A stretch of DNA of 64,000 nt from an uncultured cyanobacterium (GCA_963718615.1 OY970368.1:736001-800000), one strand, 5' to 3'; positions 8,989 through 34,471 are shown, numbered from the stretch's first letter. The notes: generated from the letters alone by a model not told the origin. Program-made: numbers and translations.

Positions 8989-8989
8989 T

Positions 8990-14625: not shown

Positions 14626-17016
14626 TTACTGAATTACTCTAAAAACTGTTCGGAATACTTTAAGACTAAATATGCTTGGCAAAATTAAGCCAAGAAGACT
14701 TGGAACTATTGGAAGGAAGCCATTCCAGAAGATGAGTGTCCCCCAGGAAACAGTACAGAGTAAACAAAATAAAGCTACTCGTAAAAGAAGGCGCAACTTT
14801 GTTGCCGGTAGACCTAGGGCTAAAATAACACCATTGCAACTCCAAAAAAGAATCCAGAGATTGTCTGCTAACATTGGCCAGAACCAGAGCAACGGACGAT
14901 GCCCGACAGCAGCATCGATAATTTGACTGGTTACATGGGCTTGTAGCACAACCCCTGGAAGATCGTACCGGAAAGGCGTTCTATGGTAATCTCTATAGCT
15001 AGCTGCTGTGGTACCAATGAGCACAATCCGGTTTTTAATCGATTGTGCTGCAATTTCGCCATCGAGGACCTGTGAGAGTGAGACTGTCTCAAAGCTATTG
15101 ACCGGAGATGAACCTGGAATTTTCCGATACCGAAGCAAAATCTGTAATCCTCTAACATCAGCATTCAAGTAAATGCCTGGGCGAGTTTTGAGAGATGTTA
15201 GGGTAGCTTCTCCCAACTGCCAAGAATTACCTGTTGGAAACTGAAGCTGTATATCTTTTTCGCTTAAGTATCTTAGTGCGAGTTGTAAATTAAGAGAATA
15301 GGGAGGGACGCATTGACCAACTTCTGGCTGCATGGCGATCAGAGCACGCCGAACGACTCTATCTTGGTCGCTCATCGTATCGCTAAATCCGACAGATTTT
15401 AGGGGAAAGTTTTGGGGGGGAATGACTTCCGGCTTTGATGCAGCTATATCTCTAACTCGACAGGTTGTGATGAGAGGTGAGTTTGTGTTAGCCCATTTTG
15501 AAATATCATTAGGATTTGATAGATGAGGTTTCACTTCCTTAAGTAGCAAAGATTCATTCTCTCCTTGCTCAAAGGATCGATCGCGATAAATATCTAGGCC
15601 AATTACGGCTGCTTCTGCCTGATTCAATATCGTGAGTAATTGATTGAGAGCAGTAGGCGAAAGAGAATCAATCCTATCCTTCTGAGTAGGATGATAAAGG
15701 TCGTCTTCAGTAACTTCTACGATCAAGATACTGGGGTCGTATTCATCATTTGCAGGGCTCAATCGCACTATTACGTCATAGCTCCAGAGTTCAAGCTGTT
15801 GTAAAGCTCCGCTAAAGCGTAATCCGAGAACAGCGGCGGTTATCCCAATGCTTAGGGCTGCAATATAAAATACTTGGTGATAAGTTGGTAATCTTCGGAG
15901 AAAATCTCTCGATTGCAACGGAATCTCGGCGTTGTCTGACTGTAGATCGTGCCAAGTTGGGGGAGAGAAAGCGGGATTTTGGCAGATAATCGGAAGCCAA
16001 GTTGCACAAGGGAAATCATTTTCTAAGCTTTCTAGGCGATCGCGTGCCTGTCGCACTGCTGTATAAAGTGTTTTACCCCCAGCATAATCATGTAAAAAAT
16101 ACTGTAGGAACTTCTGAGCAACAATATCTGGTACCAGCTCCCGCATAAGAATGAGCTGAGGAATATTGAGTTCCTCTAGTTCCCAGGCTAATCCTAAGCC
16201 ATCACAGGAATTGAAAATAGCGAGCTGTAGCCCTCGACTAATTGCTTGTTTGAGAGATTTTCTAAGTTGTCCTATGGAAAGACTATCAGTTTCATTTAGC
16301 TGTATATACCCTATTGCATTGGATGTTTGACTGTGACCTGCAAAAAAGAGAATATCCCATGACTGGTGCCACAGCTTATCTGAAAATTCCTGGCGAGAAG
16401 GTTTGCGTAAAATTTCAACGTTGGCATTAGACAGTGCTCGTAGATCTATCTCATCTATCTCTGTATTAATACCCTGATTGTCACCAAAGATAGCTAAAAT
16501 ATTTACCTTTGGTGTTACTGGAGACTTAAGGCTTACGAATTTTGAATAGTCATTTTTGCAAAAACCCAGCTCTAATGTCGGGTATTGCTCCAGCTCCTCC
16601 CAGAGATGCCAAGGTAGTCGCCACAACTGTGGGTCATTGGCCTGAATGAGGATTCGACATTCCTGATCTGAAGCGAGTTCTCGATACAGCTCTCGTCGAA
16701 CTGGGTTAAAGCCGGGGTCAGCAAGCCACGTATCAATATCAGCCTTAAGACTGGCTGAGAGCTGTCTACATTCTTGGCGAAGAGAAGCCGCAGAGCTATC
16801 AATTCTCGCTGCTTTTGTTTTGATAGCCCGAACCTGCTTTCCGAGGGCTCGATAACTTTTACTCCATTCACAATAATGAGTTGCTAATTGTGGATAGAAA
16901 GGTAGGGATCCTGTCGATTGAAGATAGGGGGAACCCTGTTCTTCTCTGGCTTGGATTATGACTTTAAAGCCAGACTCTAAAGAACCATCAAAACTAAGTA
17001 TAATGAGCTTAGGCAT
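14626..17016 (-). CDS. Membrane CHAT (caspase-like) - CHASE2 sensor protein
   Basis: ILFFAGHS and AIFNSCDG His/Cys dyad; WLPIICQNP; TM helix; CHASE2 (AAVIGLDIYRD, VLIGTTA, PGVVLQAH..SQII); three C-terminal TM helices. Confidence 0.9.
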   Translation of the reverse strand: MPKLIILSFDGSLESGFKVIIQAREEQGSPYLQSTGSLPFYPQLATHYCEWSKSYRALGKQVRAIKTKAARIDSSAASLRQECRQLSASLKADIDTWLADPGFNPVRRELYRELASDQECRILIQANDPQLWRLPWHLWEELEQYPTLELGFCKNDYSKFVSLKSPVTPKVNILAIFGDNQGINTEIDEIDLRALSNANVEILRKPSRQEFSDKLWHQSWDILFFAGHSQTSNAIGYIQLNETDSLSIGQLRKSLKQAISRGLQLAIFNSCDGLGLAWELEELNIPQLILMRELVPDIVAQKFLQYFLHDYAGGKTLYTAVRQARDRLESLENDFPCATWLPIICQNPAFSPPTWHDLQSDNAEIPLQSRDFLRRLPTYHQVFYIAALSIGITAAVLGLRFSGALQQLELWSYDVIVRLSPANDEYDPSILIVEVTEDDLYHPTQKDRIDSLSPTALNQLLTILNQAEAAVIGLDIYRDRSFEQGENESLLLKEVKPHLSNPNDISKWANTNSPLITTCRVRDIAASKPEVIPPQNFPLKSVGFSDTMSDQDRVVRRALIAMQPEVGQCVPPYSLNLQLALRYLSEKDIQLQFPTGNSWQLGEATLTSLKTRPGIYLNADVRGLQILLRYRKIPGSSPVNSFETVSLSQVLDGEIAAQSIKNRIVLIGTTAASYRDYHRTPFRYDLPGVVLQAHVTSQIIDAAVGHRPLLWFWPMLADNLWILFWSCNGVILALGLPATKLRLLLRVALFCLLCTVSWGTLIFWNGFLPIVPSLLGLILPSIFSLKVFRTVFRVIQ

Positions 17017-17044
17017 CGGCTAATACTATCAATGAAGTATAGAC

Positions 17045-18148
17045 CTAAAGAACGATCTTTTCTTCAAAAGTAAGACCATTCAAGCTGAGGTGCAGAATCA
17101 CAGCATCACCTTTCGTCCCTGAGAATTCCAATTGAAGATGACGATTATGCTGTTGGGCACAGGCGGCGAGCAGTTCAGAACGATTCGTATCTAGCAAGGC
17201 TAGTTTTAGGTTCTGGGGCAAGTACTCTCGACGAGGGCCTGGAATTGCATCAATAGAGATTTCAAGTGGTTCCTCAATGCCCTCAGCAGCACGAATTACC
17301 AATGCTACTGTCTGGTCAATATCCTCGTCGAGGTTTGGTGCCATTGTACCTCCATGTAAATTAGGATATAACGAAATAAGTTTATATCCAGAAACACAGT
17401 TAGATGGAGTGTGATGAAACTTAGATTGGAGCGAGTGGCCTCCAAAAAAGTCTTCCATTTTTTGTTGAAGCTCGATATTTTCTAGAGTTCGATAGGCGTA
17501 TGTAAGGGTTGACGGGTTGGAAGAAGTGGGATGTATGACTGCGTCGAGAGAAGACCAGCCAGAGGCAAAGAAGTCAGACCACCATTGTCTCAGCTCGACA
17601 AATGGTGATTTGGCAGTCGCAAGAAACTCAGGAAACTCATCTATACCTCGGAAGTTTTCAATAGAAAACAATTCAGAGTTCCGAGCTCCTGTCGTCTCTG
17701 GATTAAGGCAATTCAGAAAGCCGAGTAATATAGCTTGGTGTTGATCTAAATCGATTTCTACAGCAAAATATGCGATCCGGTTTTCCCAAGACTCCGCTGG
17801 CACTCGAATATGATGACTTCCCGGAAGAACTGGACAGCATTCAACGATCCCTAGATCAGGTAGGCGAATATCTGCAATGTCTAAGAGAATTCGCCGAAAC
17901 GGTTCCTGAAACTCGGTTGCTTGAGTATCAGATTCTATTCCTAAACATTGGAAATAGTGGTTGACAGCAAATCTCGCTAGGGCATTGTGATAGATCTGTT
18001 GCTGTCTAGGCATTGGACAGTTTTGAGCAAGTCGCTTCGCTTCTTGTTCAGCTTTGGCTGTGAGGACGATCGGAAAACTTGGTGTTGGTAAGGATTCAGG
18101 GCTGTACAAGAGCGATGAGTTCATAGTATATGGGGTGATAAGCTGCAT
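17045..18148 (-). CDS. DUF1822-family protein (candidate anti-sigma / protease substrate)
   Basis: QIYHNALA.FAV..Y...LGI, VECCPV, VPAE.WENRIAYFAV, VELRQWW..F.SGW, LP.NLKL.LLD and QLEFSG..GD C-terminal beta domain. Confidence 0.85.
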   Translation of the reverse strand: MQLITPYTMNSSLLYSPESLPTPSFPIVLTAKAEQEAKRLAQNCPMPRQQQIYHNALARFAVNHYFQCLGIESDTQATEFQEPFRRILLDIADIRLPDLGIVECCPVLPGSHHIRVPAESWENRIAYFAVEIDLDQHQAILLGFLNCLNPETTGARNSELFSIENFRGIDEFPEFLATAKSPFVELRQWWSDFFASGWSSLDAVIHPTSSNPSTLTYAYRTLENIELQQKMEDFFGGHSLQSKFHHTPSNCVSGYKLISLYPNLHGGTMAPNLDEDIDQTVALVIRAAEGIEEPLEISIDAIPGPRREYLPQNLKLALLDTNRSELLAACAQQHNRHLQLEFSGTKGDAVILHLSLNGLTFEEKIVL

Positions 18149-18205
18149 TGTGGTGATGTGACAAAGGGCGGTGAAGATACCAATCGTTAGCTATTTGGAT
18201 GGTTT

Positions 18206-19396
18206 CTATTCTGGGTTTCGTACTGAATTCAGTTCGGGATTCCTATCTGAGAACGTTTGTGGCCACAGTACCATCATACTCCTTTCATAAAAGCTTCTAA
18301 GCTTCGTGGGGTCTACCTTTAGGGCATCACTAGGAATCTGCCAGAGATGTCCGGCATCTAAAAGGATTTTTGTTAACTCAGAAAATGTGATGCTTGGATA
18401 GTCTGGCATGACAATTTTGTACCGCTCATTACGAGTGACATCACGATAGCTAGGAAATCGCTTAACTCGGCTCCGGTGATCACTTTCCAGTTTCGCTTCA
18501 TCAATCTTAAATTTCTGCGCAATGTTTTCCCAGGACTCACCCTCAAACCGAGAAAACCGAATGGCATGAAGGGTTGATTTAGACTGCCCTTCAACGACTG
18601 GTGTCAAAAGATTATCAAGCCAGTTGCTTAAAAAGTTTCTGGGCGTCGTTAGTCTGTTAAAGCCGTATTGGTCAGCAATGTCTTGCCATGTTTTATTTTT
18701 TATTCGAGCTAGAACAATGTCTAGGAAGGTAATGTGTGGCTTATCTCGATTGGGAATTCGAAAAATATAGTCTTCTTTTAACCAGTCTAAAAGGTTACTT
18801 GTTGTAAAATCCGATGAATGACTAGGAACACGATCGAAATCAAAGTCTTGAACTGGTTTCCCGAATCTTTCTTGTCTTTTCAGATCAGTAGCCTGAGGGA
18901 TATGAGTTCGGTCAAAGCGAAAGTTAATCCACTTAATGAATTCACCTCGCTCAGCATCAAATTTATGGATGTTTTTACAAATCCAAAGCTGAAGAATGTT
19001 CTGAGCTTCGCGATAGGCTTCGTCTGAGGCAAAGTCGGGCCGTTTTTTGAGCCGATTGCTGAGGAATAGAGCTCGAAAGAGAATGTCAATCGCTGTTTGA
19101 AACTCCGGAGTTCCGAGTGCGTAACTTTGGACATGGAGAGCGATCGCCTTCATCTGTCGCTCTCCCAGTACGGCTTGCCAGGTCTTGGCAAGAAGCAAAG
19201 ATGAAATTTCGCTAAACCTTTGCTCGGAAAGCGGCCCTTGCTGTATCGTTTCTAGTAGAAGCACAGAAAGAGACTGACTTGCCAGTCTACTAATCTCTTG
19301 GTAGATATAAGGAGGTTTTCCCCGCTGGAGTAAGCGATAGAAAGCATTATGGCGGAGAAGCGCCTCAGCCATCTCCATGGAATCGAAATCAGTCAT
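18206..19396 (-). CDS. Divergent sigma-70/ECF-like factor of cyanobacterial CHAT/DUF1822 loci
   Basis: Sigma-2-like YREAQ....WICKNIHKFDAERGEFIKWINF and C-terminal W..IA..(F/Y) HTH modules; first gene of the operon with DUF1822; ATG 19396 preferred over GTG 19423. Confidence 0.7.
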   Translation of the reverse strand: MTDFDSMEMAEALLRHNAFYRLLQRGKPPYIYQEISRLASQSLSVLLLETIQQGPLSEQRFSEISSLLLAKTWQAVLGERQMKAIALHVQSYALGTPEFQTAIDILFRALFLSNRLKKRPDFASDEAYREAQNILQLWICKNIHKFDAERGEFIKWINFRFDRTHIPQATDLKRQERFGKPVQDFDFDRVPSHSSDFTTSNLLDWLKEDYIFRIPNRDKPHITFLDIVLARIKNKTWQDIADQYGFNRLTTPRNFLSNWLDNLLTPVVEGQSKSTLHAIRFSRFEGESWENIAQKFKIDEAKLESDHRSRVKRFPSYRDVTRNERYKIVMPDYPSITFSELTKILLDAGHLWQIPSDALKVDPTKLRSFYERSMMVLWPQTFSDRNPELNSVRNPE

Positions 19397-19416
19397 GCTA
19401 TGCCTATTGCATGGAA

Positions 19417-19460
19417 CCTTCACAAACTTAATCCTCGTCTACATGGGTAATTTACACGTT
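19417..19460 (-). promoter_or_regulatory. Bipartite promoter-like motif, copy 1 (sigma-like gene)
   Basis: Minus strand AACGTGTAAA-N17-GATTAA-GTTT-GTGAAGG. Confidence 0.7.
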
Positions 19461-19653: not shown

Positions 19654-20475
19654 ATGAGAAAATTATTGCCCTTGATGATTTTGTTCTCTGGGATTGTGGT
19701 TGCTTCCACGTCACTAGCCCTAGGACAGCCCGAATTGATCCAATCGGCTGAGACGAAAGCTACGAAGAAAAAAACGCCCTATGTCCCCCCGGACCCCCCT
19801 CCAGGTTTGAATGCTCCCGGAAATCGTAGCGAGGCTGGGAGTCGGGGTAGTGATGGACAGATTTTGCCGCTGGCTCAGCAATTGGTTGCCATTGTTCCTG
19901 AGTTTGAGCGGGTAGTAGAGTCTTTGCCTATTCCACAGGTATGGGTCCTCACGGCTTCTCGCTATCCGACTTTTTGGTTTTATGTTCCCCTTGCTGAAGA
20001 TCCTACGCTTAGGTTTGTAATTGAACGTAGGAACCCATCGGAACGCGGTCGGAAATACATAACCGTTTACCAGCAGGAAATCCCTATTTCTCGGGAAGGA
20101 TTCCTCTCTATTACGCCTGCTGATTCATTTGAAGGGTTAAAAGAAGGGGAGCTCTATCGTTGGTCTTTGAGTTCGATTAAGCCTAGTTTAACGAAAAGTT
20201 ATCGTTCGTTAAAGCCGATTAAGGGTTGGGTTGAGCTGCGATCGTTACCGAAAAATATGAGTGAACAGCTCAAGCTTGCTTCTCCATCAGAAGCTATAGA
20301 GATTTATGGGCGGAATGGAATTTGGCTGGACAGTTTTGATGCTGTAGCCCAGCACTACCGTACTGCTCCGGACCGTTACATCATCTTGTGGCAGGATTTT
20401 TTAGAAGGGGTTGGACTTGAGGCGTTATCAAAGAAACCAGTATCAAGTGGTGGCTCAGTCGTTCGCCACGATTAA
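19654..20475 (+). CDS. DUF928-family secreted protein
   Basis: Signal peptide; PPDPP...APGNRSEAGSRG; T.S.YPTFWFYVP; YRWSL; GIWLD; W..FLE.VGL. Confidence 0.88.
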   Translation: MRKLLPLMILFSGIVVASTSLALGQPELIQSAETKATKKKTPYVPPDPPPGLNAPGNRSEAGSRGSDGQILPLAQQLVAIVPEFERVVESLPIPQVWVLTASRYPTFWFYVPLAEDPTLRFVIERRNPSERGRKYITVYQQEIPISREGFLSITPADSFEGLKEGELYRWSLSSIKPSLTKSYRSLKPIKGWVELRSLPKNMSEQLKLASPSEAIEIYGRNGIWLDSFDAVAQHYRTAPDRYIILWQDFLEGVGLEALSKKPVSSGGSVVRHD

Positions 20476-23096: not shown

Positions 23097-23861
23097 ATGA
23101 CCCCGACAGCATTGAAAGTGTTAAGTCATCACGCGACAGCCGCGTTATTCGCTGTGAGTGTAAGCTTGGTCGGAGCAACCCAAACCCTAGCACAGACTAA
23201 ACCCACCATTTCTGTGCCCGAATTTAAGAATGAAAGCACTTGGTGGTGGTGGCGGGGAGGCACATCCAGAGAACTAGCGGATGCCTTGAGCAATGAGTTG
23301 AGTTCAACTGGCAGCTTTACGGTTGTTGAACGTCAAAAGCTAGATACGGTTCGAGATGAGCAAGTCCTGAATAATGAGGGTCTTGTACGGCAAGGAACTG
23401 GGGCTAAAACGGGGCAGCTAACGGGCGCACAATATATTGTTATGGGTAAGGTGACGTCCTATGAGGAAGGTGTCAACGGGGAAGAAAGCAAGAACAGAAC
23501 CTGTGTTCTCGGCATTTGTCGTGGTGGTGCCAAGCAAAAGCAGCAAGCTTATGTGGCGATCGATCTGCGTGTCGTCAACTCAACAACCGGAGAAGTAGCC
23601 TATGCGCGAACAGTTGAAGGACTCGCGACTTCAGAATCTGAGTCCAAATCAGGCGGAATTACTATTGGCCCTATCACTACGGGCGGAAGCTCTAGCAAAA
23701 CCACGAAAGCCCCGGTTGGAAAAGCGCTTCGTTCTGCGCTGGTCGAAGCCACTAATTACCTTGACTGTGTGATGGTGAAAAAAGGAAGCTGTATTGCAGA
23801 ATTTGAGAGAAAAGAAGCAGTTCGCCGTGAGAATACTGGTGGTGTTCTAGATCTGCAATGA
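23097..23861 (+). CDS. CsgG/HfaB-family envelope protein
   Basis: Signal peptide; FTVVERQKL...EQ.L, GQLTGAQYIV.G.VTSYEE and VAIDLRVV.STTGEV. Confidence 0.88.
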   Translation: MTPTALKVLSHHATAALFAVSVSLVGATQTLAQTKPTISVPEFKNESTWWWWRGGTSRELADALSNELSSTGSFTVVERQKLDTVRDEQVLNNEGLVRQGTGAKTGQLTGAQYIVMGKVTSYEEGVNGEESKNRTCVLGICRGGAKQKQQAYVAIDLRVVNSTTGEVAYARTVEGLATSESESKSGGITIGPITTGGSSSKTTKAPVGKALRSALVEATNYLDCVMVKKGSCIAEFERKEAVRRENTGGVLDLQ

Positions 23862-25055: not shown

Positions 25056-25583
25056 ATGATGAAAATGCACAAGTTTGGTCTCTATGCTTCTACAGCAATT
25101 TTATTGAGTGGTGTGATTGCTAGCTCGGCGATCGCTCAAACAAAATTAGCACTGACCCTCAAACCCTACGACGAAAAACACAAATATGTTGACTTCTCTT
25201 CAGACTCCGGCACCTGTGAAGGTACAGTCATGCAAGCTGGCATGGCTTGCGTTCTTAATATTAAAAAAAACGACTCGAAATTTAGTCGCGTGGCAGTGCT
25301 AAGTCTAGTGAATGTTGTTCAGACACTAAGATCTCGAACCGATATTAATGTTCGTGAATTTAAACCAAATAAAGCAAACATTGCTTTTTTGATAACGGTT
25401 AACATGTACGTTGACTATACAAAAAGTACAGTGCCGCTGGCACAGGCGGGCTTGACGAATCAAGGAGAATTAATCGTGATCCCAGAATATGGTGAATACG
25501 GGCTTGAAGAATCTAAAAATGTTCTAGAACGAGAGTCGAAGGCGATCGCCATTCTAATCAAAGCCCTAAAAGAAACAAAATAA
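25056..25583 (+). CDS. Hypothetical secreted protein
   Basis: Signal peptide ending AIA-QT; 175-aa ORF. Confidence 0.7.
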   Translation: MMKMHKFGLYASTAILLSGVIASSAIAQTKLALTLKPYDEKHKYVDFSSDSGTCEGTVMQAGMACVLNIKKNDSKFSRVAVLSLVNVVQTLRSRTDINVREFKPNKANIAFLITVNMYVDYTKSTVPLAQAGLTNQGELIVIPEYGEYGLEESKNVLERESKAIAILIKALKETK

Positions 25584-25646: not shown

Positions 25647-28600
25647 TCAGAGCCAATTACCGACTAAAACAAATGCGGCCCAAAAATAGGGCTCCGATGT
25701 ATCCAGTTCATCCGAGTCCTTCACATAAAGCTGAGCCCGACGCAACGCCTCAGCACGGCTCACAGAGCTATCTGCAAGTTCTTGGTAAAACCGCTGCATC
25801 AGAAATGCTGTAGACCGGTCATCAACAAACCAAAGGCTGCCCAGCGTACTCCTTGCGCCCGATCGCACTGCAATCCCCGCCAAACCCAGTCCTGCCAGTT
25901 CATCCCCCTTGGCGGTTTCGCAGGCACTCAGTACCAAAAGTTCGATAGGCTGGTCAGAGCCCAGCCCCTTGCCCTGGAGAAGAGCACTCAGCTCATTCGC
26001 ATTTAGCCGATCATCCGCCGTGACAACATAGGTGTCTTCTAACGTCGAGCCAAAAACACCATGGGTTGCCAAATGAACCACCGGGAATGAGAGTTCATTG
26101 ACCTTAGTTTCGAGATTTGTCTGCGTAAAGTCTCCGTCTAATAAGACCTGGCTACCTGGGGCTTGAGCCTGAATTGATTCAACTTCAGGTTTGGCGAAGC
26201 CTAGTGCTTTAAAAGGTCCATTATCTACCGTTAGCCCACCTAGAATTACCTTAACATTACGACGGGATAGCGATCGCGAATCCAAAAGCTGTAGACTTGG
26301 GGAGGTAGCGATCGCATACTTCTCAATCAAGTACTTCTCTTCCCGTTGGTCATACAAAACCGCCATGGGAATATTCTGAAGCGAACCACTCGACAGAAAC
26401 AAGAGTGTTTCTACACCGCTTGCTTCTAGATCCGCTTCAAAGGGTCGAATGAGAATATCGTAGAGTTGTCCGCCAATGAGTACTGTCTCGTCTCTCGCTT
26501 CTTGGGGTTGCTTCAGGCCAACTTGCAAAATTTCTTCTCCATCGCTTCTAGAGCAGTTGGTACTAGACAATTCGTTAGTATCATCAAACTCAGCTTGCTG
26601 ACAGGCCGTGCCCCGAGAAGAGACAAGACTTCTCAGTGAGAACAAATCTTGATCAAACTCGACTAAATTAACCGAACTACTTTGATGCTTCCAGATAGTA
26701 TTGTTTGATAAATCATTGACTTTATTAGAGACATTACTTTTTGTTCTAGAAACTTTTGTATTCGGCAAGCCAACGACAACTTCGACTCGATCTTTGATGA
26801 TAATTGGGTAAATAATCGCGGCTTTTGGATCAATGTCTTCAATCTTAATCTCACTAGCCAGTAGACAGTCAGATCGAAAGAAATTGGTCAATTCTGCGAC
26901 CTGAAGCGAATCTGCAATCTGAATAGCCCGATCCAAATAGGAATTAAAGTTTTCTTGAACTAAATTTATCGTCTGGCCTGTCAACTGTTTTTGAGTCTGT
27001 TTCTTTTTCGAATGCTCTAAAATAGAATATTGACTTGGTTCTAATGATACTTTTTGATGGTTTGCTTCAATCAACAGCTCAATTAAACCTTGATAGATAG
27101 GTTTAATCTGATTTTGAAAAGAGAGCTGGTTCTGACGATTGATTGTAATTAGATCACCCTTCAAAAGATTGATTTGAGTCACCGAGGACTCGTAGGCGGC
27201 GATCGCCTCCATCAAAAGCTGATCCCGTTTCTCAAGCTGATCGATTGGTAAAAGCGATCGTTTGAACCTGAGCAACCTCCCCTGCTGCCAAAGCCAGGGG
27301 TAAGTCATAAACCCAAGATTGAGGCCCTCCGCTCGTTCTAATGCCTGCTTGGTGAAAGCCTCTGCCTGGGCTAATTGCTGCTGTTTTTCGATAGGTGCGA
27401 GCGCCTCCAGAAATCGATATTCATACAGTCTTCCCCAGTACCCTAGAGCATAGGCTTCAAACTGACCGTCCTGGAGTGATTTCGATTCTGCAAGTAGCTG
27501 CTGAATTAGCCTTTCTACTGTTTTTTCTGAAATGATATCGTATTGATTTTTTCCATCTCTGGGCTTCATTAGATTTAATGCATCAGCGATCAAGGTGACT
27601 TGTAATCGAAACTTGGCGCGGTTGGCTGGAATAGTTTCTAGTAATGCGATCGCTTGAGTGATTTCTGAGGCGATCGCTTGACCCGAACGGAGTTGGCTCG
27701 CAGTATCAGGTTTAAGCTGTTGCTGAGTTCGCTGTTGAATCATCTGCTGAATCAGATTGATTTGGGCTTGTAGTTCAATCTCAGGGGGAATAGACAGAGC
27801 CATCGCCTGCCGCAGAGAGGCTTGCGCATCTTCTGAGTTTGCTGCCATGCTGCTGATGCTGATCAGGGAGAGTGCAGCTTCGATGGGGAAATTTTCCTGT
27901 TGCGCGATCGTCAAACTTTGTTCTAAGCAATCCTGGGCACTCTGACATAATCCCGTTTCATTCCGGCCAGAGAACTGATACAGTAAGTTACCTAACTGCC
28001 TCAGGACTAAAGCTTTGTTCTGAGGATCAATCAATGTATTAGTCTGAGAAACTAGCATCTGACCAGCTGAATTGAGACTTTCCATCGCCTGTGGATACAA
28101 ACCACTCAGACGCAAAAGTTCAGCTTGATTAAGCCGATTGCGCAGGAAAGCACTAGCATTTTTGGGCAGTTTTAGATTGAGCCGCTGATAGGACTTTTCA
28201 GCGGTACGGAGTTTCTGTAAGGCAGTTTGGTATTGCCCCTGCGCGCGATAGAGCTGCCCTTCGGTACTGAAGCTCTGGGCCAAGACTCGTTGTTGTGCCG
28301 TGCTAGGAGATAATTTTTCAAGCTGGGTTTGGGCTTGAGTGAGAATTTGTTCAGCGGCTCCATAATCCCCAAGCTGGAGATGGGCAAGGGCGATGTTGTT
28401 GAGGGCGATCGCCTGGGCCAGCCTATCACCCTTTTGCTCAGCCCACTGCTCAGCTTTTTCCCAGTGTATCTTGGCTTCAAAAAATCGACCCGATTGGTAG
28501 GCTGCACGTCCAGCCTCCAAAAAATTCTGATTAGAAGTTTCTACAACTGATGGAGAAGACTGATTAAGTTCCAGGAAAAATCCCACAGGTGTCTGTTGGG

Positions 28601-28679
28601 CTAAGCTCGGAGCGCTGATGCATAGCCACAGGGTTAGACTCATCCAAGCGATGAATCTCCAGATGCGAGAATCGGTCAT
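25647..28679 (-). CDS. Secreted TPR - CHAT (caspase/HetF-like) protease
   Basis: Signal peptide, TPR-like helices, VVHLATHGVF and LVLSACETA dyad, SLWFVDD, PYFWAAFVLVGNWL; ATG overlaps the TpsA stop (ATGA). Confidence 0.93.
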   Translation of the reverse strand: MTDSRIWRFIAWMSLTLWLCISAPSLAQQTPVGFFLELNQSSPSVVETSNQNFLEAGRAAYQSGRFFEAKIHWEKAEQWAEQKGDRLAQAIALNNIALAHLQLGDYGAAEQILTQAQTQLEKLSPSTAQQRVLAQSFSTEGQLYRAQGQYQTALQKLRTAEKSYQRLNLKLPKNASAFLRNRLNQAELLRLSGLYPQAMESLNSAGQMLVSQTNTLIDPQNKALVLRQLGNLLYQFSGRNETGLCQSAQDCLEQSLTIAQQENFPIEAALSLISISSMAANSEDAQASLRQAMALSIPPEIELQAQINLIQQMIQQRTQQQLKPDTASQLRSGQAIASEITQAIALLETIPANRAKFRLQVTLIADALNLMKPRDGKNQYDIISEKTVERLIQQLLAESKSLQDGQFEAYALGYWGRLYEYRFLEALAPIEKQQQLAQAEAFTKQALERAEGLNLGFMTYPWLWQQGRLLRFKRSLLPIDQLEKRDQLLMEAIAAYESSVTQINLLKGDLITINRQNQLSFQNQIKPIYQGLIELLIEANHQKVSLEPSQYSILEHSKKKQTQKQLTGQTINLVQENFNSYLDRAIQIADSLQVAELTNFFRSDCLLASEIKIEDIDPKAAIIYPIIIKDRVEVVVGLPNTKVSRTKSNVSNKVNDLSNNTIWKHQSSSVNLVEFDQDLFSLRSLVSSRGTACQQAEFDDTNELSSTNCSRSDGEEILQVGLKQPQEARDETVLIGGQLYDILIRPFEADLEASGVETLLFLSSGSLQNIPMAVLYDQREEKYLIEKYAIATSPSLQLLDSRSLSRRNVKVILGGLTVDNGPFKALGFAKPEVESIQAQAPGSQVLLDGDFTQTNLETKVNELSFPVVHLATHGVFGSTLEDTYVVTADDRLNANELSALLQGKGLGSDQPIELLVLSACETAKGDELAGLGLAGIAVRSGARSTLGSLWFVDDRSTAFLMQRFYQELADSSVSRAEALRRAQLYVKDSDELDTSEPYFWAAFVLVGNWL

Positions 28680-31600
28680 GATTTTGTCTCCTGGATTTGG
28701 GTGCGATCGCCTGAACAAACCTGTGGGGAATGGTTTGGATAAACTGGTCGGGCTGCTAAAAGCTGAATATTTCCACGGGCATCTCGACTCCAGTCTTGGG
28801 CTTCTAAAATGGGGATTGGCAGAAGAGAGACAGACTCTTGAATCGTGGGAGTGGGCTGTGCTAGCGCTACAGATTCGATCTGTAAATCTGGTCCTAAATC
28901 GGCTTGAAACGGAGCGTCTTGGGCGGAACGTTCGGGGCTACTGGGAATTCCCCAGCGTCCGCGTTGCACAAAGCGACTGCTACGGGTAGGATTTGCCACT
29001 AGCTCACAGCGCCGATCGATCAGTGCTGTTGGGTCAACTAGGCTGCTAGGCAATTCGCTTAATCCTTGGGAGGGATCCGCATCAATAATATCGAGCGCGA
29101 TGTTGCCCTGGGCTCCAAATTCTGAGCTGGCTGTGATATCGCTTAGAAGCGTCAGTTGCGGACGAAACTTTAGGCCAATAATTGACTGCCCGGTGATGTT
29201 GATATTACCTCCGTTTCCTCGCACAGCATTGGCAGTGATGTCGCTGTTCTCACGCGGTATGCCCAGCAGGAAGGGAACAGTCAGGTCGATGTTGCCGCCG
29301 TTGCCACTGCCCCCAGCATTCGTGGCAATTTTGCTTCCGTGCCTCAACAGCAAGGTTTCGTCAACGCTGAAACGAAGGTTGCCGCCTTCGCCGGAGGCCG
29401 TGGAGGCGCTGAGGCGGCTTTGGTCGTAGAGGGCGATCGCCCGTGCATCAATTTCTAAATTGCCACCATCACCGACTCCAGAACTGCTGACGCTGGCTTC
29501 GGCTTGCCGCAGATTGAGCTGCCCTGTTTCGATCTCCAAATTTCCGGCCTTACCTGCGCTAGAGGATCGCGCCACAACCTGAGCCTGATTTTGCAAGGTA
29601 ATGCTTTGGGGCGCAATTAGACGCAAGTTGCCACCGTTGCCCTCTCCTGTCGTGGAGGTGGAAAGTTGCGCATTGTTTTGCAGTGTAAATCTTTGGGTCT
29701 CAACCATAAGGTTACCCGCAAGGCCACTACCGCTGGTTTCAGCAGAAAGGCTGCCTTCGCCACTAATACTGACGGAGTTGGGTGCCGTGATTAACAAGCT
29801 GCCGCCCTTGCCGCTGCTAGAAGTTGAGGCCGAAACACGGGATTGCTCTCGGAGGTTGATGGTGAGGTCATCGCTGGTATTAGACCGCAGCGTGAGCCGC
29901 CCCGCCTGAGCTTCTCCTTGGGTTTCGGAGAGCACTTGGACGGTGCCAAATAGGTTCATTTCGTTGGCGTTGAGGGTGATGTTGGCGCTGGGTTCGAGGG
30001 TATTGGCCGGTGGTGTAGCGGTGGCGGTGGCAGTGGTGGTGAGGCGGGTACCTTGGTCGAGGGTGAAGCGATCGGTGGTGACGGTGACGTTGCCTGCGGA
30101 GCCGGTAGCGCTGGTTTGAGCGTTGAGCACACCGTTACCTGTGATATTGATGGCTGTCGGAGCTGCGAGAATGATATTGCCCCCGTTGCCGGTACTTCGG
30201 GTCTCAGCTGTAATTTGGCTAACGAATTGGCTAGTATCCGGAATACTTGAGAGATTATTCTGAAAATTTATATTGAGAATATCGCTATTGAAGGCAGAAA
30301 GGGTGATGTTACCTGCTTTGCCGCTGCCTGTGGCAGAAGTAGCGATTTGACCGCCATCAAGCAGTGAGATTTGTGGGGTTTCAATAAAGATATTTCCTGC
30401 GTTGCCAGAACTTTGAGATTGAGCAGAAAAACCTGTACTAACTGGCAAACTGTCAGTTAGTTGAACATTCAAGATATATTCGCCAGGGTCATAAGAAACA
30501 ATTCGTAGTGCATAACGTCCTGGTTTCTCAAAAATAAATTCTCCTAGACTGAAGTCAAAGCGGGAACCATTCGAATCATCTTGATCGTTCAGAATCTGAC
30601 CATTTTCGTCAATTAGGTCAACAAATAAAAATCGAGAAGTTGAGTCAAGAGGCGTTTTCCATCTAAGTCGCACGCCAGCTGAGGCCACATTAAAAGCATA
30701 AACATCTTTGTCTCCAAATTCTAGATATTCTGTTCCGGAAATATCACTCTCATCAAGATAGCCTTCAATAGACACGTAAGGTACTTGGTTGGAAAGCTCA
30801 ATTTCAGGATTATCAGCATCGTTTATATCTACACCAAAGGCAGAATCTAAGTCTTGAGCATTCTTAAAATCATCGTTAAATCCTGAACGTTCTTGAATTT
30901 TGGCATTTGCAGATAACTGCTTTGAAGGAAATATCAAAGCAGTTCTACCATCCACCACTAAACCTTCTAATGATTGAACAATGATATTTCCTCCACTCCC
31001 CCGAGAACCAGGGAGAGATGCCGTAGAAACCACACTATTTCCAAATAGATCTAATGTTCCTTCAGAGAGCAAAATAACGTCGCCAGCATCTCCCAATCCA
31101 CCAGTAATAGTGACAATACTGCTATCCAGAATCGTGATATCTTTCTTAGAGAGCAACACTACATTACCGGCAATTTCATCTCCAAAGTTAGTTGTGTCAA
31201 CTAAGGTAAATCCTTTTAGAAGAATTGACTCTCCTTCAAGTTCAATGTTCCCCCCTTTACCATTTGCACCTGGTTCAATAGCTGTCGTTAACCGGGAGTT
31301 GTCAAGACTTACGGTCTTCTCAGAACTCAGATAAATCCCTCCCGAAGAGCCTTCTCCAGCTATGCTTGTAGATGCCGTAAAGTTTTTCAATTCGATAGAT
31401 GGAGACAAGATTTGTATCTCTCCTGAATCTCCATTCATATTGATAACACTAGAACTGAAATCAATATTGCGTAAGGCTAATACTCCATTGTATTGAGAGA
31501 CACTGATCTTGCCAGACTGCGCAGTTTCTCTTATGGTTCCTGAGATGCCTGTCTCTCCAGTAAAATCTTCAAGCGTATAAAAACTCCCAAATCTCTTTTC

Positions 31601-34471
31601 AACATTTACAGATGCAGAGGTTTCATGAAGTCCTTCTACAAAAGACCTGACATTGCCAATTCTTATGCTATCTCCCGATTTTACTGAAATATCTCCACCA
31701 TTAGAAGAGACTTCAATATTATCAGTACTTCCTCCTGTTAGTTCATCAGAAGTTGGATATTGTATCTGACCTAAAAATGAAACGGCACTTGAGCTAATTA
31801 GAGTGCTAGTATATGTAGACAAATTCCCGATATCGACCGAACTGTCCGAGTCAATGATGATATCTCCTGCGGCAGCCGATAATTGAATTTCTCCAATTTT
31901 CCCACCTTTTCCGGACCAGTAAGAGAGTAGGTCTGAAGATGCAGATAAGGTTATATCAGAATTTATATACGAAGATATATCTTCCGTTTTAGTTAGGCTT
32001 GAAGAAAAGATTGAAACATCTCCAGCTCGTTCTGTTGACTCAACACTACCTATCTTTCCTCCTCTTAAAGATCCAATTACACTCAAAACATAAAGATTTT
32101 CTACAGAAGAATCTATATTACCAGTAATCGCTGAAGTGTTTGCGTGGACAGAAATATTTCCGCTTGTTGACGCTAACCTAACAGATCCTATTTCTCCACC
32201 ACGATAACTATTGATAGGCACTCTACTAACGTCGTTTTGTACTTGAATCGAATCATCGAATGAGCCAAAATTTATGCGAGAATCGACACTTACGTATGAT
32301 TTTATTTTATTTGCCAAAAGTTCATTTTGAGATGAAATATCTATGTTTCCGCCTTTGAAAGATAGATCAAGACTATTTATCTCTCCTCCTCTTCCTGCAT
32401 ATGCAAATGAATCTGAAGATGCTGTTGCTAGAAAATCTAAATGAGCCACGTCTACAAATGCAAGGATATCACTTGCAACGAACGAGTTGCCTGCCGAGAT
32501 ATTGATGTCTCCACTATTTCCGACAAATTTTCCTGCATCAACTTTACCACCATTTCCAGTGAGAAAAGATGAATCTTTAGATGCGAACGTGGATGCATAT
32601 AAATCTATAAATGTGTTTATCCTGATAGAAGAATCTATTTTTTGGGACTCGAAAGATTGATTAGAATAGACTGTTATGTCTCCTCCAAAAACCGTCTGAT
32701 CAATAGCCAAAATTGTTCCTCCATTGACCACATCAAATACAGGATTATCGTTGGCATATTTCTGAGCAGATGCATCTATATTTACGAGTGAATTAGAAGA
32801 GGATTGAATATTCTTGGCTGTTAGTGAAATCAGAGAATCTAGAGAAATATCTCCACCGGCCGTTATTGTTTTTATCTCTCCGATTTGCGCTGAGTTTCCT
32901 GACTCTACTGAGGCGTTTACTTTTGTGTAGCTATAAGCAGAGGCGTATATTTCTCCTATTCTAGCCGATGCAGAAGAGGATAGACCAATATTACCTGCAA
33001 CAGATGAGTTTGATACCGCCTCAATATTGCCCTGGCTGATAGCAGTACCATTGATTGTGTAGAATTGAGAACTGCCTTCTGAGATTGACGCTGAATAAGT
33101 ATATATGTCCTTGAGTAGGACTTCGCCATCTGCCTGTATTACTATATTCCCTCCATGAGATAGAGTCAGGGGTCGAGTAATATCATTCACGTTAAGAGTT
33201 TCACCATAGGAAACAGACTGAGCAGATGTATTTAGGTTTTGACCTAAGATATTAGAGCCAGACTTCAAGAAAATACTACCTCCCTTTGCTTCTGCAATAT
33301 CCCCAGAAGGTAGAAAGATGATATTCGGATTGAGAGCGTATTCAAGTTCAGACAAGTCTCCAATCCAGTTGCCGACCCTTGCAGCGGTTATCAAATCTCC
33401 GTTCAATTCAATTTCCCATTGAGAATCAATCCAAACATCTCCCCCATTTGCAAACTGGCCCATCTCGAAAATCTGCCTTGTATCAATCATTTCAGCCTGT
33501 ATATCTCCTTCTTGCAATGTAAGATTTGGCTGATACTGATTGGTCAACAAAACTGTTCCGCCTTCATTCCGAATGTCCCCAATTTCAATTCCCGACCCTA
33601 CCGTCCCATCACCACTACTTAGCGCCAATATCCCCGATCGCACATCCACCGTCGGCTCCGCAGCCCCATCAATCTCTACCACCGTCGCCCCATCCGACAA
33701 CAGCACTGACTCCCGCAGCACATTCCCTGCCAGTCCCTGCCCCATCACCGTAACATCTCCCACTGTCACCGAGCCCCCTGACAAAATATGCAACGAGCCT
33801 CCGGTGTAATCTCCTAGTGTGATACTTCCAGGCGATCGCAACAAAACCCCACCCCTCGCCGCTAGTGCTCCCTGCAACTCAATCGCACTCCCATTCAGTA
33901 GCAGCCCCCCCTCTGAGCTCAAAGCTCCTTCAGCGACAATGGGCGATCGCCCCACCTGCAAACCCGGCTGAACCTTCAGCGTCAGCAACGGTGCAGCACC
34001 CAAATTGAGCACCTCAAAGATGCCATCGGCACCAAAATCAAAGGCATCTGCTGTGCTAGCAATAAACGAACCCGCCAAATCCAGCCTGGCTCCTGGCCCG
34101 AACAAAATACCATTGGGATTGAGCAGGAATAGATCTGCTGACCCCGACACCCCCAGCGTCCCATCAATCCGGGACGCTGCATTCCCTGTTACCCGACTAA
34201 AGATCTGCTCAATGCCAGCCGGATTCTCAAAATAAACCGCTCGACCCGCCCCCACCCCAAATGACGTAAAACTGTGAAAGAGATTTGGTCCTCTTGACTG
34301 CCCTCCCTCGATCACATCAAGCACAAGATCATTATTGACCACCTGACGCACACGAGACGATTCCACACCCAAACTATCATCTGGCAATACCTCTTGGGCA
34401 ATCCCCGGCAACACACTTAAGGTAATACCCCCAAGCGTCAGCAGAACTGTCAACCTTGTATCCCGCATCAC
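28676..34471 (-). CDS. Filamentous-haemagglutinin (TpsA) family exoprotein
   Basis: Signal peptide; NLFHSF..F, RVTG..S.IDG.L and LFLLNPNGILFG TPS domain; beta-helix GxGGNI repeats; NSDITANA..G.GGNI and SDITASSEFG C-terminus. Confidence 0.93.
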   Translation of the reverse strand: MMRDTRLTVLLTLGGITLSVLPGIAQEVLPDDSLGVESSRVRQVVNNDLVLDVIEGGQSRGPNLFHSFTSFGVGAGRAVYFENPAGIEQIFSRVTGNAASRIDGTLGVSGSADLFLLNPNGILFGPGARLDLAGSFIASTADAFDFGADGIFEVLNLGAAPLLTLKVQPGLQVGRSPIVAEGALSSEGGLLLNGSAIELQGALAARGGVLLRSPGSITLGDYTGGSLHILSGGSVTVGDVTVMGQGLAGNVLRESVLLSDGATVVEIDGAAEPTVDVRSGILALSSGDGTVGSGIEIGDIRNEGGTVLLTNQYQPNLTLQEGDIQAEMIDTRQIFEMGQFANGGDVWIDSQWEIELNGDLITAARVGNWIGDLSELEYALNPNIIFLPSGDIAEAKGGSIFLKSGSNILGQNLNTSAQSVSYGETLNVNDITRPLTLSHGGNIVIQADGEVLLKDIYTYSASISEGSSQFYTINGTAISQGNIEAVSNSSVAGNIGLSSSASARIGEIYASAYSYTKVNASVESGNSAQIGEIKTITAGGDISLDSLISLTAKNIQSSSNSLVNIDASAQKYANDNPVFDVVNGGTILAIDQTVFGGDITVYSNQSFESQKIDSSIRINTFIDLYASTFASKDSSFLTGNGGKVDAGKFVGNSGDINISAGNSFVASDILAFVDVAHLDFLATASSDSFAYAGRGGEINSLDLSFKGGNIDISSQNELLANKIKSYVSVDSRINFGSFDDSIQVQNDVSRVPINSYRGGEIGSVRLASTSGNISVHANTSAITGNIDSSVENLYVLSVIGSLRGGKIGSVESTERAGDVSIFSSSLTKTEDISSYINSDITLSASSDLLSYWSGKGGKIGEIQLSAAAGDIIIDSDSSVDIGNLSTYTSTLISSSAVSFLGQIQYPTSDELTGGSTDNIEVSSNGGDISVKSGDSIRIGNVRSFVEGLHETSASVNVEKRFGSFYTLEDFTGETGISGTIRETAQSGKISVSQYNGVLALRNIDFSSSVINMNGDSGEIQILSPSIELKNFTASTSIAGEGSSGGIYLSSEKTVSLDNSRLTTAIEPGANGKGGNIELEGESILLKGFTLVDTTNFGDEIAGNVVLLSKKDITILDSSIVTITGGLGDAGDVILLSEGTLDLFGNSVVSTASLPGSRGSGGNIIVQSLEGLVVDGRTALIFPSKQLSANAKIQERSGFNDDFKNAQDLDSAFGVDINDADNPEIELSNQVPYVSIEGYLDESDISGTEYLEFGDKDVYAFNVASAGVRLRWKTPLDSTSRFLFVDLIDENGQILNDQDDSNGSRFDFSLGEFIFEKPGRYALRIVSYDPGEYILNVQLTDSLPVSTGFSAQSQSSGNAGNIFIETPQISLLDGGQIATSATGSGKAGNITLSAFNSDILNINFQNNLSSIPDTSQFVSQITAETRSTGNGGNIILAAPTAINITGNGVLNAQTSATGSAGNVTVTTDRFTLDQGTRLTTTATATATPPANTLEPSANITLNANEMNLFGTVQVLSETQGEAQAGRLTLRSNTSDDLTINLREQSRVSASTSSSGKGGSLLITAPNSVSISGEGSLSAETSGSGLAGNLMVETQRFTLQNNAQLSTSTTGEGNGGNLRLIAPQSITLQNQAQVVARSSSAGKAGNLEIETGQLNLRQAEASVSSSGVGDGGNLEIDARAIALYDQSRLSASTASGEGGNLRFSVDETLLLRHGSKIATNAGGSGNGGNIDLTVPFLLGIPRENSDITANAVRGNGGNINITGQSIIGLKFRPQLTLLSDITASSEFGAQGNIALDIIDADPSQGLSELPSSLVDPTALIDRRCELVANPTRSSRFVQRGRWGIPSSPERSAQDAPFQADLGPDLQIESVALAQPTPTIQESVSLLPIPILEAQDWSRDARGNIQLLAARPVYPNHSPQVCSGDRTQIQETKS

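Follow-up and report, generated by a model that had tools for sequence, protein, structure and literature searches.

The stretch of DNA analysed here, 64,000 nucleotides (nt) from the 6.1-Mb genome of an uncultured cyanobacterium (GCA_963718615.1 OY970368.1:736001-800000; hereafter the window), carries the genes of a CHASE2-CHAT receptor protease, a DUF928 protein, a DUF1822 protein and a divergent sigma-like protein resembling the extracytoplasmic function (ECF) group, and we consider it somewhat better than an even bet that these form a four-gene signalling cassette in which proteolysis gates the release of the sigma factor. According to this scheme, a periplasmic event involving DUF928 would switch on the CHAT domain of the receptor by way of CHASE2, the CHAT domain would cut DUF1822 after Arg220, where an aromatic residue and Arg precede Ser or Thr, and the cut would free the sigma factor that DUF1822 holds. 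The freed sigma factor would transcribe promoters of the form AAC[CG]TGTAAA-N17-GATTAA, located before its own operon and before an FG-GAP repeat gene and a CsgG-like gene, whose products would be envelope or surface proteins. It is conceivable that an exported TPR-CHAT protease processes DUF928 to make the signal, and this is the weakest link in the scheme. Protein-protein contacts, proteolysis, promoter activity and the order in which the signal would pass are all inferred.

Judged by its domains and gene neighbours, the cassette is a member of the EACC2-caspase/ECF sigma/DUF1822 family described computationally by Kaur, Iyer, Burroughs and Aravind (eLife 2021, PMC8195603). A preliminary description of this region had set out the cascade as one for which no mechanistic account was known, but the published family description places its core already in print as a prediction. 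Of the cascade as a whole, the inner triad (sigma-like protein, DUF1822 and receptor) and DUF928 proved to be conserved, whereas CsgG as a member, a fixed TPR-CHAT partner and the novelty of the core did not stand. New here are the sigma-like identity of the unannotated 396-aa protein at profile level, the three-site promoter motif with its candidate regulon, an invariant Arg residue in DUF1822 as candidate cleavage site, DUF928 as a near-constant fourth gene of the cassette, and the partnership of DUF928 with CHASE2 across different outputs.

Components and conservation of the receptor protease cassette

Genes in the window were defined by open reading frame (ORF) listing together with Pfam and NCBIfam scans, and the ORF listing and Pfam bore out the anatomy previously given for the locus, including genes, domains, catalytic dyads, spacing and an ATGA overlap. 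The FG-GAP gene (20621-22864), seen by Pfam, was missing from the earlier gene list. The sigma-like, DUF1822 and CHAT-CHASE2 genes form an operon with gaps of 57 and 28 nt, as calculated from ORF coordinates (Table 1).

The receptor has an intact catalytic dyad (FFAGHS, His228; FNSC, Cys271), which is invariant in all five paralogues within the same genome. A model of receptor residues 1-360 matches 84 homologous ORFs at other loci, and the dyad motifs are intact in every one of them. By alignment, a conserved module of about 135 amino acids (aa) precedes the CHAT domain in the five paralogues and probably corresponds to the EACC2 module of Kaur et al. Hydrophobic segments flank CHASE2, with one before it (381-403) and three after it (720-785), as in the variable C-terminal sensors of that family. 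Because the CHAT domain lies N-terminal to the first transmembrane segment and the protein ends at residue 796, the receptor is predicted to have its protease on the cytoplasmic side and lacks a C-terminal output domain, in agreement with the earlier claim of a CHASE2 sensor lacking a kinase or cyclase output. The genome as a whole contains about 49 CHAT genes, 27 of them strong matches, and 19 CHASE2 genes. Elsewhere in this genome (L090, 8772-10870, minus strand) is a CHAT-CHASE2/DUF928 pair without a DUF1822 or sigma gene, and two ORFs with calpain-family (Peptidase_C2) matches occupy the upstream position in their place.

The assignment of the 396-aa protein to the sigma factors rests on profile comparison. 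Its six close homologues from a word-based search (49-64% identity) are all unnamed or 'hypothetical'. A profile of the protein and these homologues, searched against 1.84 billion representatives, found 293 proteins at E<=1e-3, many of them ECF-sized (200-220 aa) and covering profile positions 80-264. Among 40 relatives sampled from the 150 listed of these 293, 25 had weak matches (E<=0.01) to Sigma70_r2, r4 or r4_2 in the expected places. When a 73-sequence profile was compared with the PDB, ECF sigma factors came first, with weak scores (SigK 4nqw, E=0.018; RpoE 2q1z, E=0.023). In hhalign, the 73-sequence alignment matched six canonical sigma-70-family proteins of the same genome at 96.2% (E=2e-9), placing residues 129-264 onto 72-209 of a 218-aa canonical sigma factor, whereas five unrelated control alignments gave at most 0.3%. 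In Atlas, a 49%-identical homologue lies near cyanobacterial clusters automatically named sigma-70 family (0.96), with structural TM scores below 0.5, apart from one by-row score of 0.51 to an unnamed cluster. Several observations weigh against the assignment: searches of Pfam, NCBIfam and PDB sequences gave no match for the protein itself, its best subthreshold Pfam match (Sigma70_r4_2, E=0.11) falling short of the curated model; only two of the 40 sampled relatives passed a curated Sigma70 cut-off and 15 had no match at all; and the protein carries about 128 N-terminal and 130 C-terminal residues in addition to the sigma core. Overall, the profile evidence supports a very divergent ECF-like sigma factor with a sigma2-sigma4 core at about residues 129-264, and the label 'sigma-like' in the preliminary description, invisible to Pfam, was thereby supported. 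The idea that the C-terminal 130 residues are extra copies of sigma4 found no support, with hhalign values of only 2.5-5.8%.

No orthologue of the 396-aa protein turned up in 400 sampled cyanobacterial genomes, seven other genomes of the order and two metagenome scans, and a single orthologous locus was reached (L094, in genome G413), with sigma genes that are 49% identical. By these comparisons the window sigma factor is an unusually long and rare form. At a different locus (L060, 121-2703, plus strand), an 861-aa protein with NACHT and HEAT repeats carries a sigma-like module at its C-terminus (match 675-852), and its gene lies directly upstream of DUF1822 and CHAT-CHASE2 genes.

To assess conservation, an alignment of paralogues was scanned against species genomes, yielding 597 relatives, and 78 loci were kept (L007-L084); record titles that name a taxon are all cyanobacterial, and three read 'uncultured bacterium'. 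ORFs at these loci were classified with hidden Markov models built from the paralogues of the window genome, and loci with short flanks were left out of each count as required. DUF928 lies directly downstream of the receptor on the same strand in 69 of 73 loci, and DUF1822 lies directly upstream of it in 60 of 73 and somewhere in the locus in 70 of 73 (five left out in each case). A sigma-like gene was found in 48 of 69 loci (nine left out). These counts show that DUF1822, DUF928 and the sigma gene co-occur with the receptor far beyond chance, and that DUF928 belongs with the system. Two points temper this conclusion. The 78 loci are related, many being from Nostoc, so that counts and binomial tails overstate the number of independent events, and no sigma-like gene was found beside 21 of the 69 cassettes, some of which the custom models may have missed.

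The window genome itself contains seven DUF1822 loci, counting that in the window. According to Pfam, two have sigma and DUF1822 genes alone (L001, L002), two have sigma, DUF1822, CHAT-CHASE2 and DUF928 genes close to a large CHAT or TpsA gene (L003, L005), one is a variant of the cassette with a periplasmic-binding-protein sensor (L004), and one is a copy located between two TPR-CHAT genes (L006). The orthologous locus L094 is arranged like the window, its TPR-CHAT and DUF928 genes being transcribed divergently from the sigma, DUF1822 and CHAT-CHASE2 genes. When compared with the window genome by tblastn, its sigma, DUF1822, CHAT-CHASE2 and DUF928 genes each match the window genes best (49, 43, 52 and 38% identity), and its DUF928 scores 161 bits to the window copy compared with 82 for the next paralogue. 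From these matches and the TPR-CHAT comparison given below, we conclude that the four genes are passed on together, whereas the exported protease next to them can be exchanged. The inner triad is a conserved unit, and the neighbourhood data support protease-gated release of a sigma-like factor as the most economical reading.

DUF928, which has a signal peptide, is linked to CHASE2 well beyond this cassette. In the window genome, a CHASE2 gene is found within 5 kb for 10 of the 16 DUF928 genes, compared with 0.49 expected from 2000 random placements; in six other genomes the figure is 54 of 68 (1.2 expected), and 55 of 85 CHASE2 genes there have DUF928 within 5 kb. Seven further loci examined with Pfam place DUF928 beside CHASE2-GGDEF (twice), CHASE2-GGDEF-EAL, a CHASE2 kinase, a CHASE2 cyclase and two CHAT-CHASE2 proteins, and TPR-CHAT or TpsA-CHAT fusion proteins adjoin the pair in four of these seven. 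DUF928 therefore pairs with CHASE2 receptors of any output, and not with the protease as such, and we propose it as a candidate periplasmic partner or ligand of the CHASE2 domain. The ligands of CHASE2 have been stated as not known, with binding partners to be sought (PMC10581220). The subject of that paper, Dgc2 of Leptolyngbya boryana, is a diguanylate cyclase whose CHASE2 domain is, like that of the window receptor, extracytoplasmic and flanked by transmembrane helices; its output is a C-terminal cyclase, compared with the N-terminal protease of the receptor, and the paper makes no mention of a DUF928 partner of the kind proposed here. In the literature library searched, no paper treats DUF928 and CHAT together, nor the combination of CHASE2, 'CHAT domain' and cyanobacteria. 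A second DUF928 gene in the window (41548-42330, plus strand) is convergent with a TPR-CHAT gene (42348-45134, minus strand) and has no CHASE2 gene nearby, indicating that DUF928 can also pair with an exported CHAT protease alone.

Members of the DUF928 family share the motif G-[AG]-[ST]-R-G-x-C, located after a variable N-terminal stretch, with the Arg present in 53 of 55. A pair of Cys residues is also present in 53 of 55, and the window copy has Asp67 and Lys176 at these places, possibly forming a salt bridge that replaces a disulfide; the L094 orthologue (8382-9137) likewise lacks both Cys. A broader extension of the scheme can be envisaged, although taken as a whole it is speculative and we hold it to be improbable. 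DUF928 would be the cognate periplasmic partner of CHASE2 domains generally, as pro-ligand or co-receptor, and exported CHAT proteases, some of them the C-terminal cargo of TpsA proteins, would cut it between the Arg and Gly of G-[AG]-[ST]-R-G-x-C, switching CHASE2 receptors of many outputs (cyclic di-GMP, cyclase, kinase, protease). In the window, the signal would be relayed to the cytoplasmic CHAT domain, which would cut DUF1822 at Arg220 and free the sigma factor, giving a two-tier caspase-like relay across the envelope with a defined regulon of three promoters.

The window DUF1822 protein has no hydrophobic segment. An alignment of 51 DUF1822 proteins (that of the window, six paralogues and 44 of the 78 from the loci) has a single invariant column, Arg220 in window numbering. 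This residue edges a linker that is rich in gaps and varies from 0 to about 80 residues, beyond which comes the conserved R-[AG]-K-L-I-[DE]-L-G. The preceding residue (P2) is Phe in 30 of 51 sequences, Met in six, Leu in four, Val in four and Tyr in two, and the following residue (P1') is Ser in 27, Gly in seven, Asn in six, Gln in five and Thr in two; in the window the site reads YAYR before and TLEN after the candidate cut. By analogy with the cut that HetF makes in PatU3 after Arg, the bond between Arg220 and Thr221 is a candidate scissile site for the cassette's own CHAT domain. The sigma genes fall into short and long types that co-vary with the size of DUF1822, whose gene always adjoins the sigma gene in the pairs compared. 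In 27 short/short pairs the median DUF1822 frame is 332 aa and a CHAT gene comes next in all 27; in 28 long/long pairs the median is 407 aa and a CHAT gene comes next in 14.

An alternative that we regard as rather unlikely is that DUF1822 is not a cleaved inhibitor at all, and acts as a positive partner of the sigma factor (an adaptor or co-activator), with the CHAT domain acting on itself or on some other substrate. Kaur et al. (PMC8195603) propose activation by autopeptidase activity, and not cleavage of DUF1822, which counts against the cleavage step. Sigma-DUF1822 pairs without an adjacent CHAT gene (L001, L002 and half of the long-type pairs) would also fit a positive partner, as would the lack of a recognisable anti-sigma domain: all 51 proteins match only PF08852 at meaningful E-values, and none matches a known anti-sigma family such as ASD or zf-HC2. 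A further point against the cleavage step is that the specificity for Arg at P1 is borrowed from HetF, of which the receptor is not an orthologue, scoring only 16.6 bits against the HetF equivalog model NF045509, whose cut-off is 1200. Two observations favour a cleaved inhibitor over a positive partner: the lone invariant residue is an Arg bordering a linker of hypervariable sequence, and its neighbours, an aromatic residue at P2 and Ser at P1', are those of the HetF site mapped in PatU3; and the CHAT gene lies directly downstream in every short-type pair. Other suggestions about DUF1822 were examined and set aside. Kaur et al. call it a TPR protein, whereas Pfam finds a TPR family in none of the 51 members; a relationship to PatU has only an Atlas similarity of 0.83, with NCBIfam matches in none of the 51; and a profile search of the PDB returned only Csa5 (E=0.018), which we judged too weak.

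Candidate promoter motif and predicted target genes

A search of both strands of the genome for AAC[CG]TGTAAA-N17-GATTAA gave three exact matches, all of them in the window, none with one mismatch and seven with two. The reversed motif, used as a control, gave none, none and five, respectively, and 100 shuffles of the window gave a mean of 0.05 matches, none reaching three. Each copy shortly precedes one of three genes (sigma, FG-GAP and CsgG) and is oriented in sense with it, and the position of the first favours ATG 19396 over GTG 19423 as the start of the sigma gene. In L094, AACGTGTAAA-N17-GATTAA recurs with a different spacer 31 nt before the ATG of the orthologous sigma gene (49% protein identity), and a near-copy, GACGTGTAAA-N17-GATTAA, lies before a nearby gene whose 203-aa product has a signal peptide and belongs to no family. 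Across the whole of G413, a loose 12-base pattern occurs four times, two of them at L094. The remaining loose matches, one in the window genome and two in G413, were treated as chance occurrences, since none of them has the AAC[CG] prefix and one lies inside a gene. Conservation of the boxes with divergence of the spacer, at 49% protein identity, is as expected of a promoter. We conclude that the motif is probably the autoregulated promoter of the window sigma factor, with the FG-GAP and CsgG genes as its local regulon.

It could also be argued that the motif is not a promoter of this sigma factor, and that it binds a different regulator or is part of a leader element that was duplicated locally. 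We consider this unlikely. About 45 nt, spacer included, are common to the copies before FG-GAP and CsgG, which would fit a local duplication, but the copy before the sigma gene shares with them only the two boxes and the 17-nt spacing, and the orthologous sigma gene keeps the boxes with another spacer at the same distance from its ATG. As noted above, the genome has no one-mismatch copies, and the -35 box contains AAC, which is typical of ECF-type promoters. Other points caution against the promoter and its regulon. The motif was spotted by eye in a comparison of intergenic regions, was counted afterwards and was confirmed in one other genome; 30 other short-type sigma genes do not have it upstream; the window genome and G413 have different putative target genes; and among the 78 cassette loci an FG-GAP homologue occurs in one (L022) and a CsgG homologue in none (no loci left out). 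As far as the upstream sequences indicate, the motif is specific to the orthologous sigma group of the window.

A separate pattern, TGTAAA-N16-G[AG]ATT (AATCTGTAAAATCCTTA...GAATTAGC), is found about 94 nt before four of 27 long-type sigma genes (L010, L020 with GGATTT, L025 and L027), and these four carriers are all close Nostoc relatives. When the upstream regions of 58 sigma genes were scanned for dyad repeats, the window and L094 alone had clean extra copies; matches in L010, L019, L025 and L027 were discounted as partial duplications of the sigma upstream region, 1-3 kb further upstream. Generic scans were at chance level for both sigma-70 promoters (26 compared with 30.8) and terminators (17 compared with 17.7).

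Of the two putative targets, the FG-GAP protein has no N-terminal signal peptide. The CsgG-like gene is the single CsgG-family copy in the genome, and its product has a signal peptide without a lipobox Cys. It shares the CsgG domain with the curli-type CsgG secretion channel, from which it differs in lacking the lipobox Cys and a match to the curli CsgG equivalog (NF011731, 20.9 bits compared with a cut-off of 505), and Pfam scans revealed no curli subunit families among the window ORFs. Since the promoter motif precedes both genes, CsgG and FG-GAP are more probably outputs than generators of the signal. CsgG had originally been listed among the components of the system, and this did not survive: it is missing from all 78 loci, and by its motif it looks, with FG-GAP, like a target of the sigma factor and not like part of an outer module that generates the signal.

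Exported proteases and neighbouring genes

As had been described, a secreted TPR-CHAT protein with an intact dyad (HLATHG, LSACET) and a signal peptide is coupled to TpsA, the TpsA stop and TPR-CHAT start overlapping as ATGA at 28679-28676. Both genes are convergent to the series of DUF928, FG-GAP and CsgG. TpsA resembles the passenger of a two-partner secretion (TPS) system in its N-terminal TPS domain and signal peptide, and differs in having no cognate TpsB gene adjacent. The window contains no TpsB gene, ShlB homologues occur in none of the 78 cassette loci (no loci left out), and the genome has about 24 TPS genes and three ShlB/TpsB genes.

Whether these exported proteins act with the cassette is uncertain, and we rate a functional link as well under an even prospect. 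Somewhat short of even is our estimate for the opposing explanation, namely that TpsA and TPR-CHAT form a separate exported-protease system which is merely near the cassette through gene abundance and clustering, with the CHASE2 signal coming from elsewhere. The pair lies about 5 kb from DUF928, the four to five intervening genes are unconserved in other cassettes, no copy of the promoter motif precedes the pair, and the genome is rich in such genes (the 27 strong CHAT genes and about 24 TPS genes noted above). Of the 38 loci with full 9-kb flanks (40 left out), 25 have a large CHAT or TPS gene within 10 kb and 13 have neither. In addition, the L094 TPR-CHAT gene best matches another locus of the window genome by tblastn, the TPR-CHAT gene of the window ranking 18 of 22, and is therefore not its orthologue, which weighs against a fixed partnership and suggests that the outer protease is linked as a class.

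Evidence against mere proximity comes from several counts. In five of the cassette genomes the density of large CHAT genes is 185 per 45.9 Mb, so that about 8.6% of stretches of the size searched would contain one by chance, yet one lies within 10 kb of the cassette in 21 of the 38 full-flank loci (binomial tail 3e-13); for TPS genes the count is 14 of 38 compared with about 8.4% expected (1e-6). TPR-CHAT is found directly upstream of DUF1822, on the same strand and inside the operon, in five of 16 loci checked with Pfam, and four loci have the order sigma, large CHAT gene, DUF1822, CHAT-CHASE2, DUF928. In the window genome, a large CHAT gene is found within 5 kb for eight of the 16 DUF928 genes (0.66 expected) and for 12 of the 24 TPS genes (0.96 expected), and TPR-CHAT or TpsA-CHAT fusions also flank DUF928-CHASE2 pairs of other outputs. 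The outer module of TpsA and TPR-CHAT thus held as a class, being neighbours of such cassettes about six times as often as gene density predicts, but not as a module co-inherited with the cassette (L094). Likewise, the claim that the whole set of families co-occurs beyond chance was sustained moderately for TPR-CHAT and TpsA, and not for CsgG.

Two ORFs elsewhere in this genome (L086, 9334-15165, minus strand, 1943 aa; L090, 795-4775, plus strand, 1326 aa) combine an N-terminal TPS domain with a C-terminal CHAT domain, that is, a caspase-like protease as TpsA-type cargo, and both adjoin DUF928-CHASE2 pairs.

Table 1. Cassette genes, neighbouring genes of the island and promoter-like motifs, with positions counted from the first letter of the window
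Feature	Position	Strand	Description
Receptor protease	14626..17016	-	796 aa; Pfam CHAT 50.3 bits (98-340), CHASE2 197.8 bits (393-730)
DUF1822 protein	17045..18148	-	367 aa, predicted cytoplasmic; Pfam DUF1822 127 bits
Sigma-like protein	18206..19396	-	396 aa in public gene call; no Pfam or NCBIfam match
Promoter-like motif AACGTGTAAA-N17-GATTAA	19428..19460	-	-10 box ends 31 nt before sigma ATG at 19396
DUF928 protein	19654..20475	+	273 aa, signal peptide; Pfam DUF928 108.6 bits; divergent from sigma operon
Promoter-like motif AACCTGTAAA-N17-GATTAA	20539..20571	+	49 nt before FG-GAP start codon
FG-GAP repeat protein	20621..22864	+	747 aa; Pfam FG-GAP 162.6 bits, 7 stretches
Promoter-like motif AACGTGTAAA-N17-GATTAA	22996..23028	+	68 nt before CsgG start codon
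CsgG/LpoB-like exported protein	23097..23861	+	254 aa; Pfam CsgG PF03783 164 bits, profile positions 4-204 of 210
TPR-CHAT protease	25647..28679	-	Pfam CHAT 200.4 bits and TPR_12; Sec-type signal peptide
TpsA-type passenger	28676..34471	-	1931 aa; Pfam TPS 130.6 bits (27-207), NCBIfam adhes_NPXG 83 bits; signal peptide

Between the CsgG and TPR-CHAT genes are two ORFs without a family match (24330-24935 and 25056-25583). Convergent to the receptor gene is a C39-like gene (11045-14002, plus strand) for a 985-aa protein with a C-terminal Peptidase_C39_2/AvrRpt2-like papain-fold domain. No homologue of these two ORFs, of the ORF at 34492-35055, of the C39-like peptidase or of CsgG was found in the 78 cassette loci. 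In L087, a CHASE2 kinase/DUF928 pair is followed by another protein of this kind, C39_2-SH3, to which the 985-aa protein has no similarity by phmmer. Beyond the start of TpsA lie the 187-aa ORF at 34492-35055, which has no family match, an IS605 OrfB/TnpB gene (35054-36241) and a PD-(D/E)XK transposase-like gene (36208-36993). A 487-aa protein with RTX calcium-binding nonapeptide repeats is encoded at 6664-8127, and type I secretion is conceivable for this protein and for the FG-GAP protein, which also lacks a Sec signal. The segment 45316-49201 encodes a YcaO cyclodehydratase, whose N-terminus is a winged helix, and after it a ThcOx-type cyanobactin oxidase/nitroreductase, and looks like part of a cluster for a cyanobactin-like ribosomally synthesized and post-translationally modified peptide. 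A gene for an AAA_16/ORC-CDC6-like ATPase (49477-50913) adjoins one for a GmrSD-type restriction endonuclease (51079-52782), and these may be defence genes.

Comparison with known systems

The closest known system is that of Kaur et al. (PMC8195603), in which a constant N-terminal EACC2 module and caspase domain are joined to a variable C-terminus, CHASE2 with transmembrane helices among them, and ECF sigma and DUF1822 genes are neighbours. A stimulus is proposed to activate the caspase, with transcription driven by the ECF sigma factor as the final step. The window cassette appears to share this architecture and would share the proposed logic, and it has the same neighbours, an ECF-like sigma factor (hhalign 96.2%) and DUF1822 (127 bits), at gaps of 57 and 28 nt. 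As far as the main text of that paper goes, DUF928, exported TPR-CHAT, TpsA, hemagglutinin, periplasmic components, a promoter and a cut site are not part of the description. A literature search found no experimental study of this cassette.

Kaur et al. assign the EACC2-caspase family a counter-invader role, and the cassette could accordingly be a conflict system of the abortive-infection or programmed-death type, in which an invader stimulus leads to caspase autoproteolysis and the sigma factor launches a defence or suicide programme. The seven DUF1822 loci and about 49 CHAT genes of the genome agree with the multiplicity typical of diversifying systems, a NACHT-HEAT STAND NTPase of L060 ends in the sigma-like module, and the neighbouring TPR-CHAT has been swapped between orthologous cassettes. 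We nevertheless think such a role improbable for the window cassette. PADLOC models match none of 12 island proteins, the sensor is extracytoplasmic and is paired with a secreted protein, and the DUF928 input module also serves cyclic di-GMP, cyclase and kinase outputs, as in ordinary signalling. Moreover, the predicted regulon consists of two genes for envelope or surface proteins, and all four genes have stayed together as orthologues, with identities of 38-52%.

Multicellular cyanobacteria are rich in CHAT/caspase-like proteases and CHASE2 sensors, as the gene numbers above illustrate, and to our knowledge HetF alone among these proteases has a known substrate. The window locus gives the 2021 prediction named parts, all of them candidates: a three-site promoter, a two-gene output, a bond in DUF1822 and a partner for CHASE2. 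If the scheme is true, the cassette would be a CRISPR-independent counterpart of the Csx29-Csx30-sigma switch, and would give a first clue to the signals that CHASE2 domains perceive.

Regulated proteolysis of anti-sigma factors, as in the release of sigma-E by the action of DegS and RseP on RseA, or in the case of RsiW (summarised in part in PMC10028731), follows a similar course, from an envelope signal to a cut in the protein that holds the sigma factor, ECF-sigma activity, an autoregulated operon and an envelope regulon. The window receptor, in contrast to DegS and RseP, itself carries the protease, which lies on the cytoplasmic side and is of clan CD (caspase-like), and is not a serine or site-2 protease. 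Unlike the inhibitors of RseA-type systems, the presumed inhibitor DUF1822 is soluble and has no known anti-sigma domain.

HetF of Anabaena PCC 7120 (Xing et al., PNAS 2022, PMC9457339) consists of a cytoplasmic CHAT domain, a transmembrane segment and a periplasmic TPR domain, and cuts PatU3 between Arg117 and Ser118, after Tyr116, a cut that is abolished by changing Arg117. The likeness is that of a membrane CHAT protein making one cut after Arg, at Tyr-Arg before Ser in PatU3 and, as we predict, at a similar aromatic-Arg site with its invariant Arg in DUF1822. The two differ in that the periplasmic part of HetF is a TPR domain and that of the window receptor CHASE2, and in that PatU3 inhibits division and differentiation and is not linked to a sigma factor.

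In type III-E CRISPR, the TPR-CHAT protease Csx29, in complex with Cas7-11, cuts Csx30, which holds CASP-sigma, and sites for CASP-sigma lie in its own locus (Strecker et al., Science 2022, PMC10028731). This Craspase resembles the scheme proposed here in that a CHAT protease cuts a sigma-binding protein in a flexible loop and the freed ECF-type sigma factor regulates its own locus. Craspase is activated by target RNA, whereas the window cassette would be activated through an extracytoplasmic CHASE2 sensor, and DUF1822 showed no relation to Csx30 in any search made. Pfam scans of the larger ORFs of the window found no Cas7-11 or type III Cas proteins, with CRISPR arrays not specifically searched; the only Cas-named match is a Cas12f1-like TNB domain inside the IS605 OrfB/TnpB gene. 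Considering these likenesses, we propose by analogy that the cassette works most like the HetF-PatU3 and Csx29-Csx30-sigma switches.

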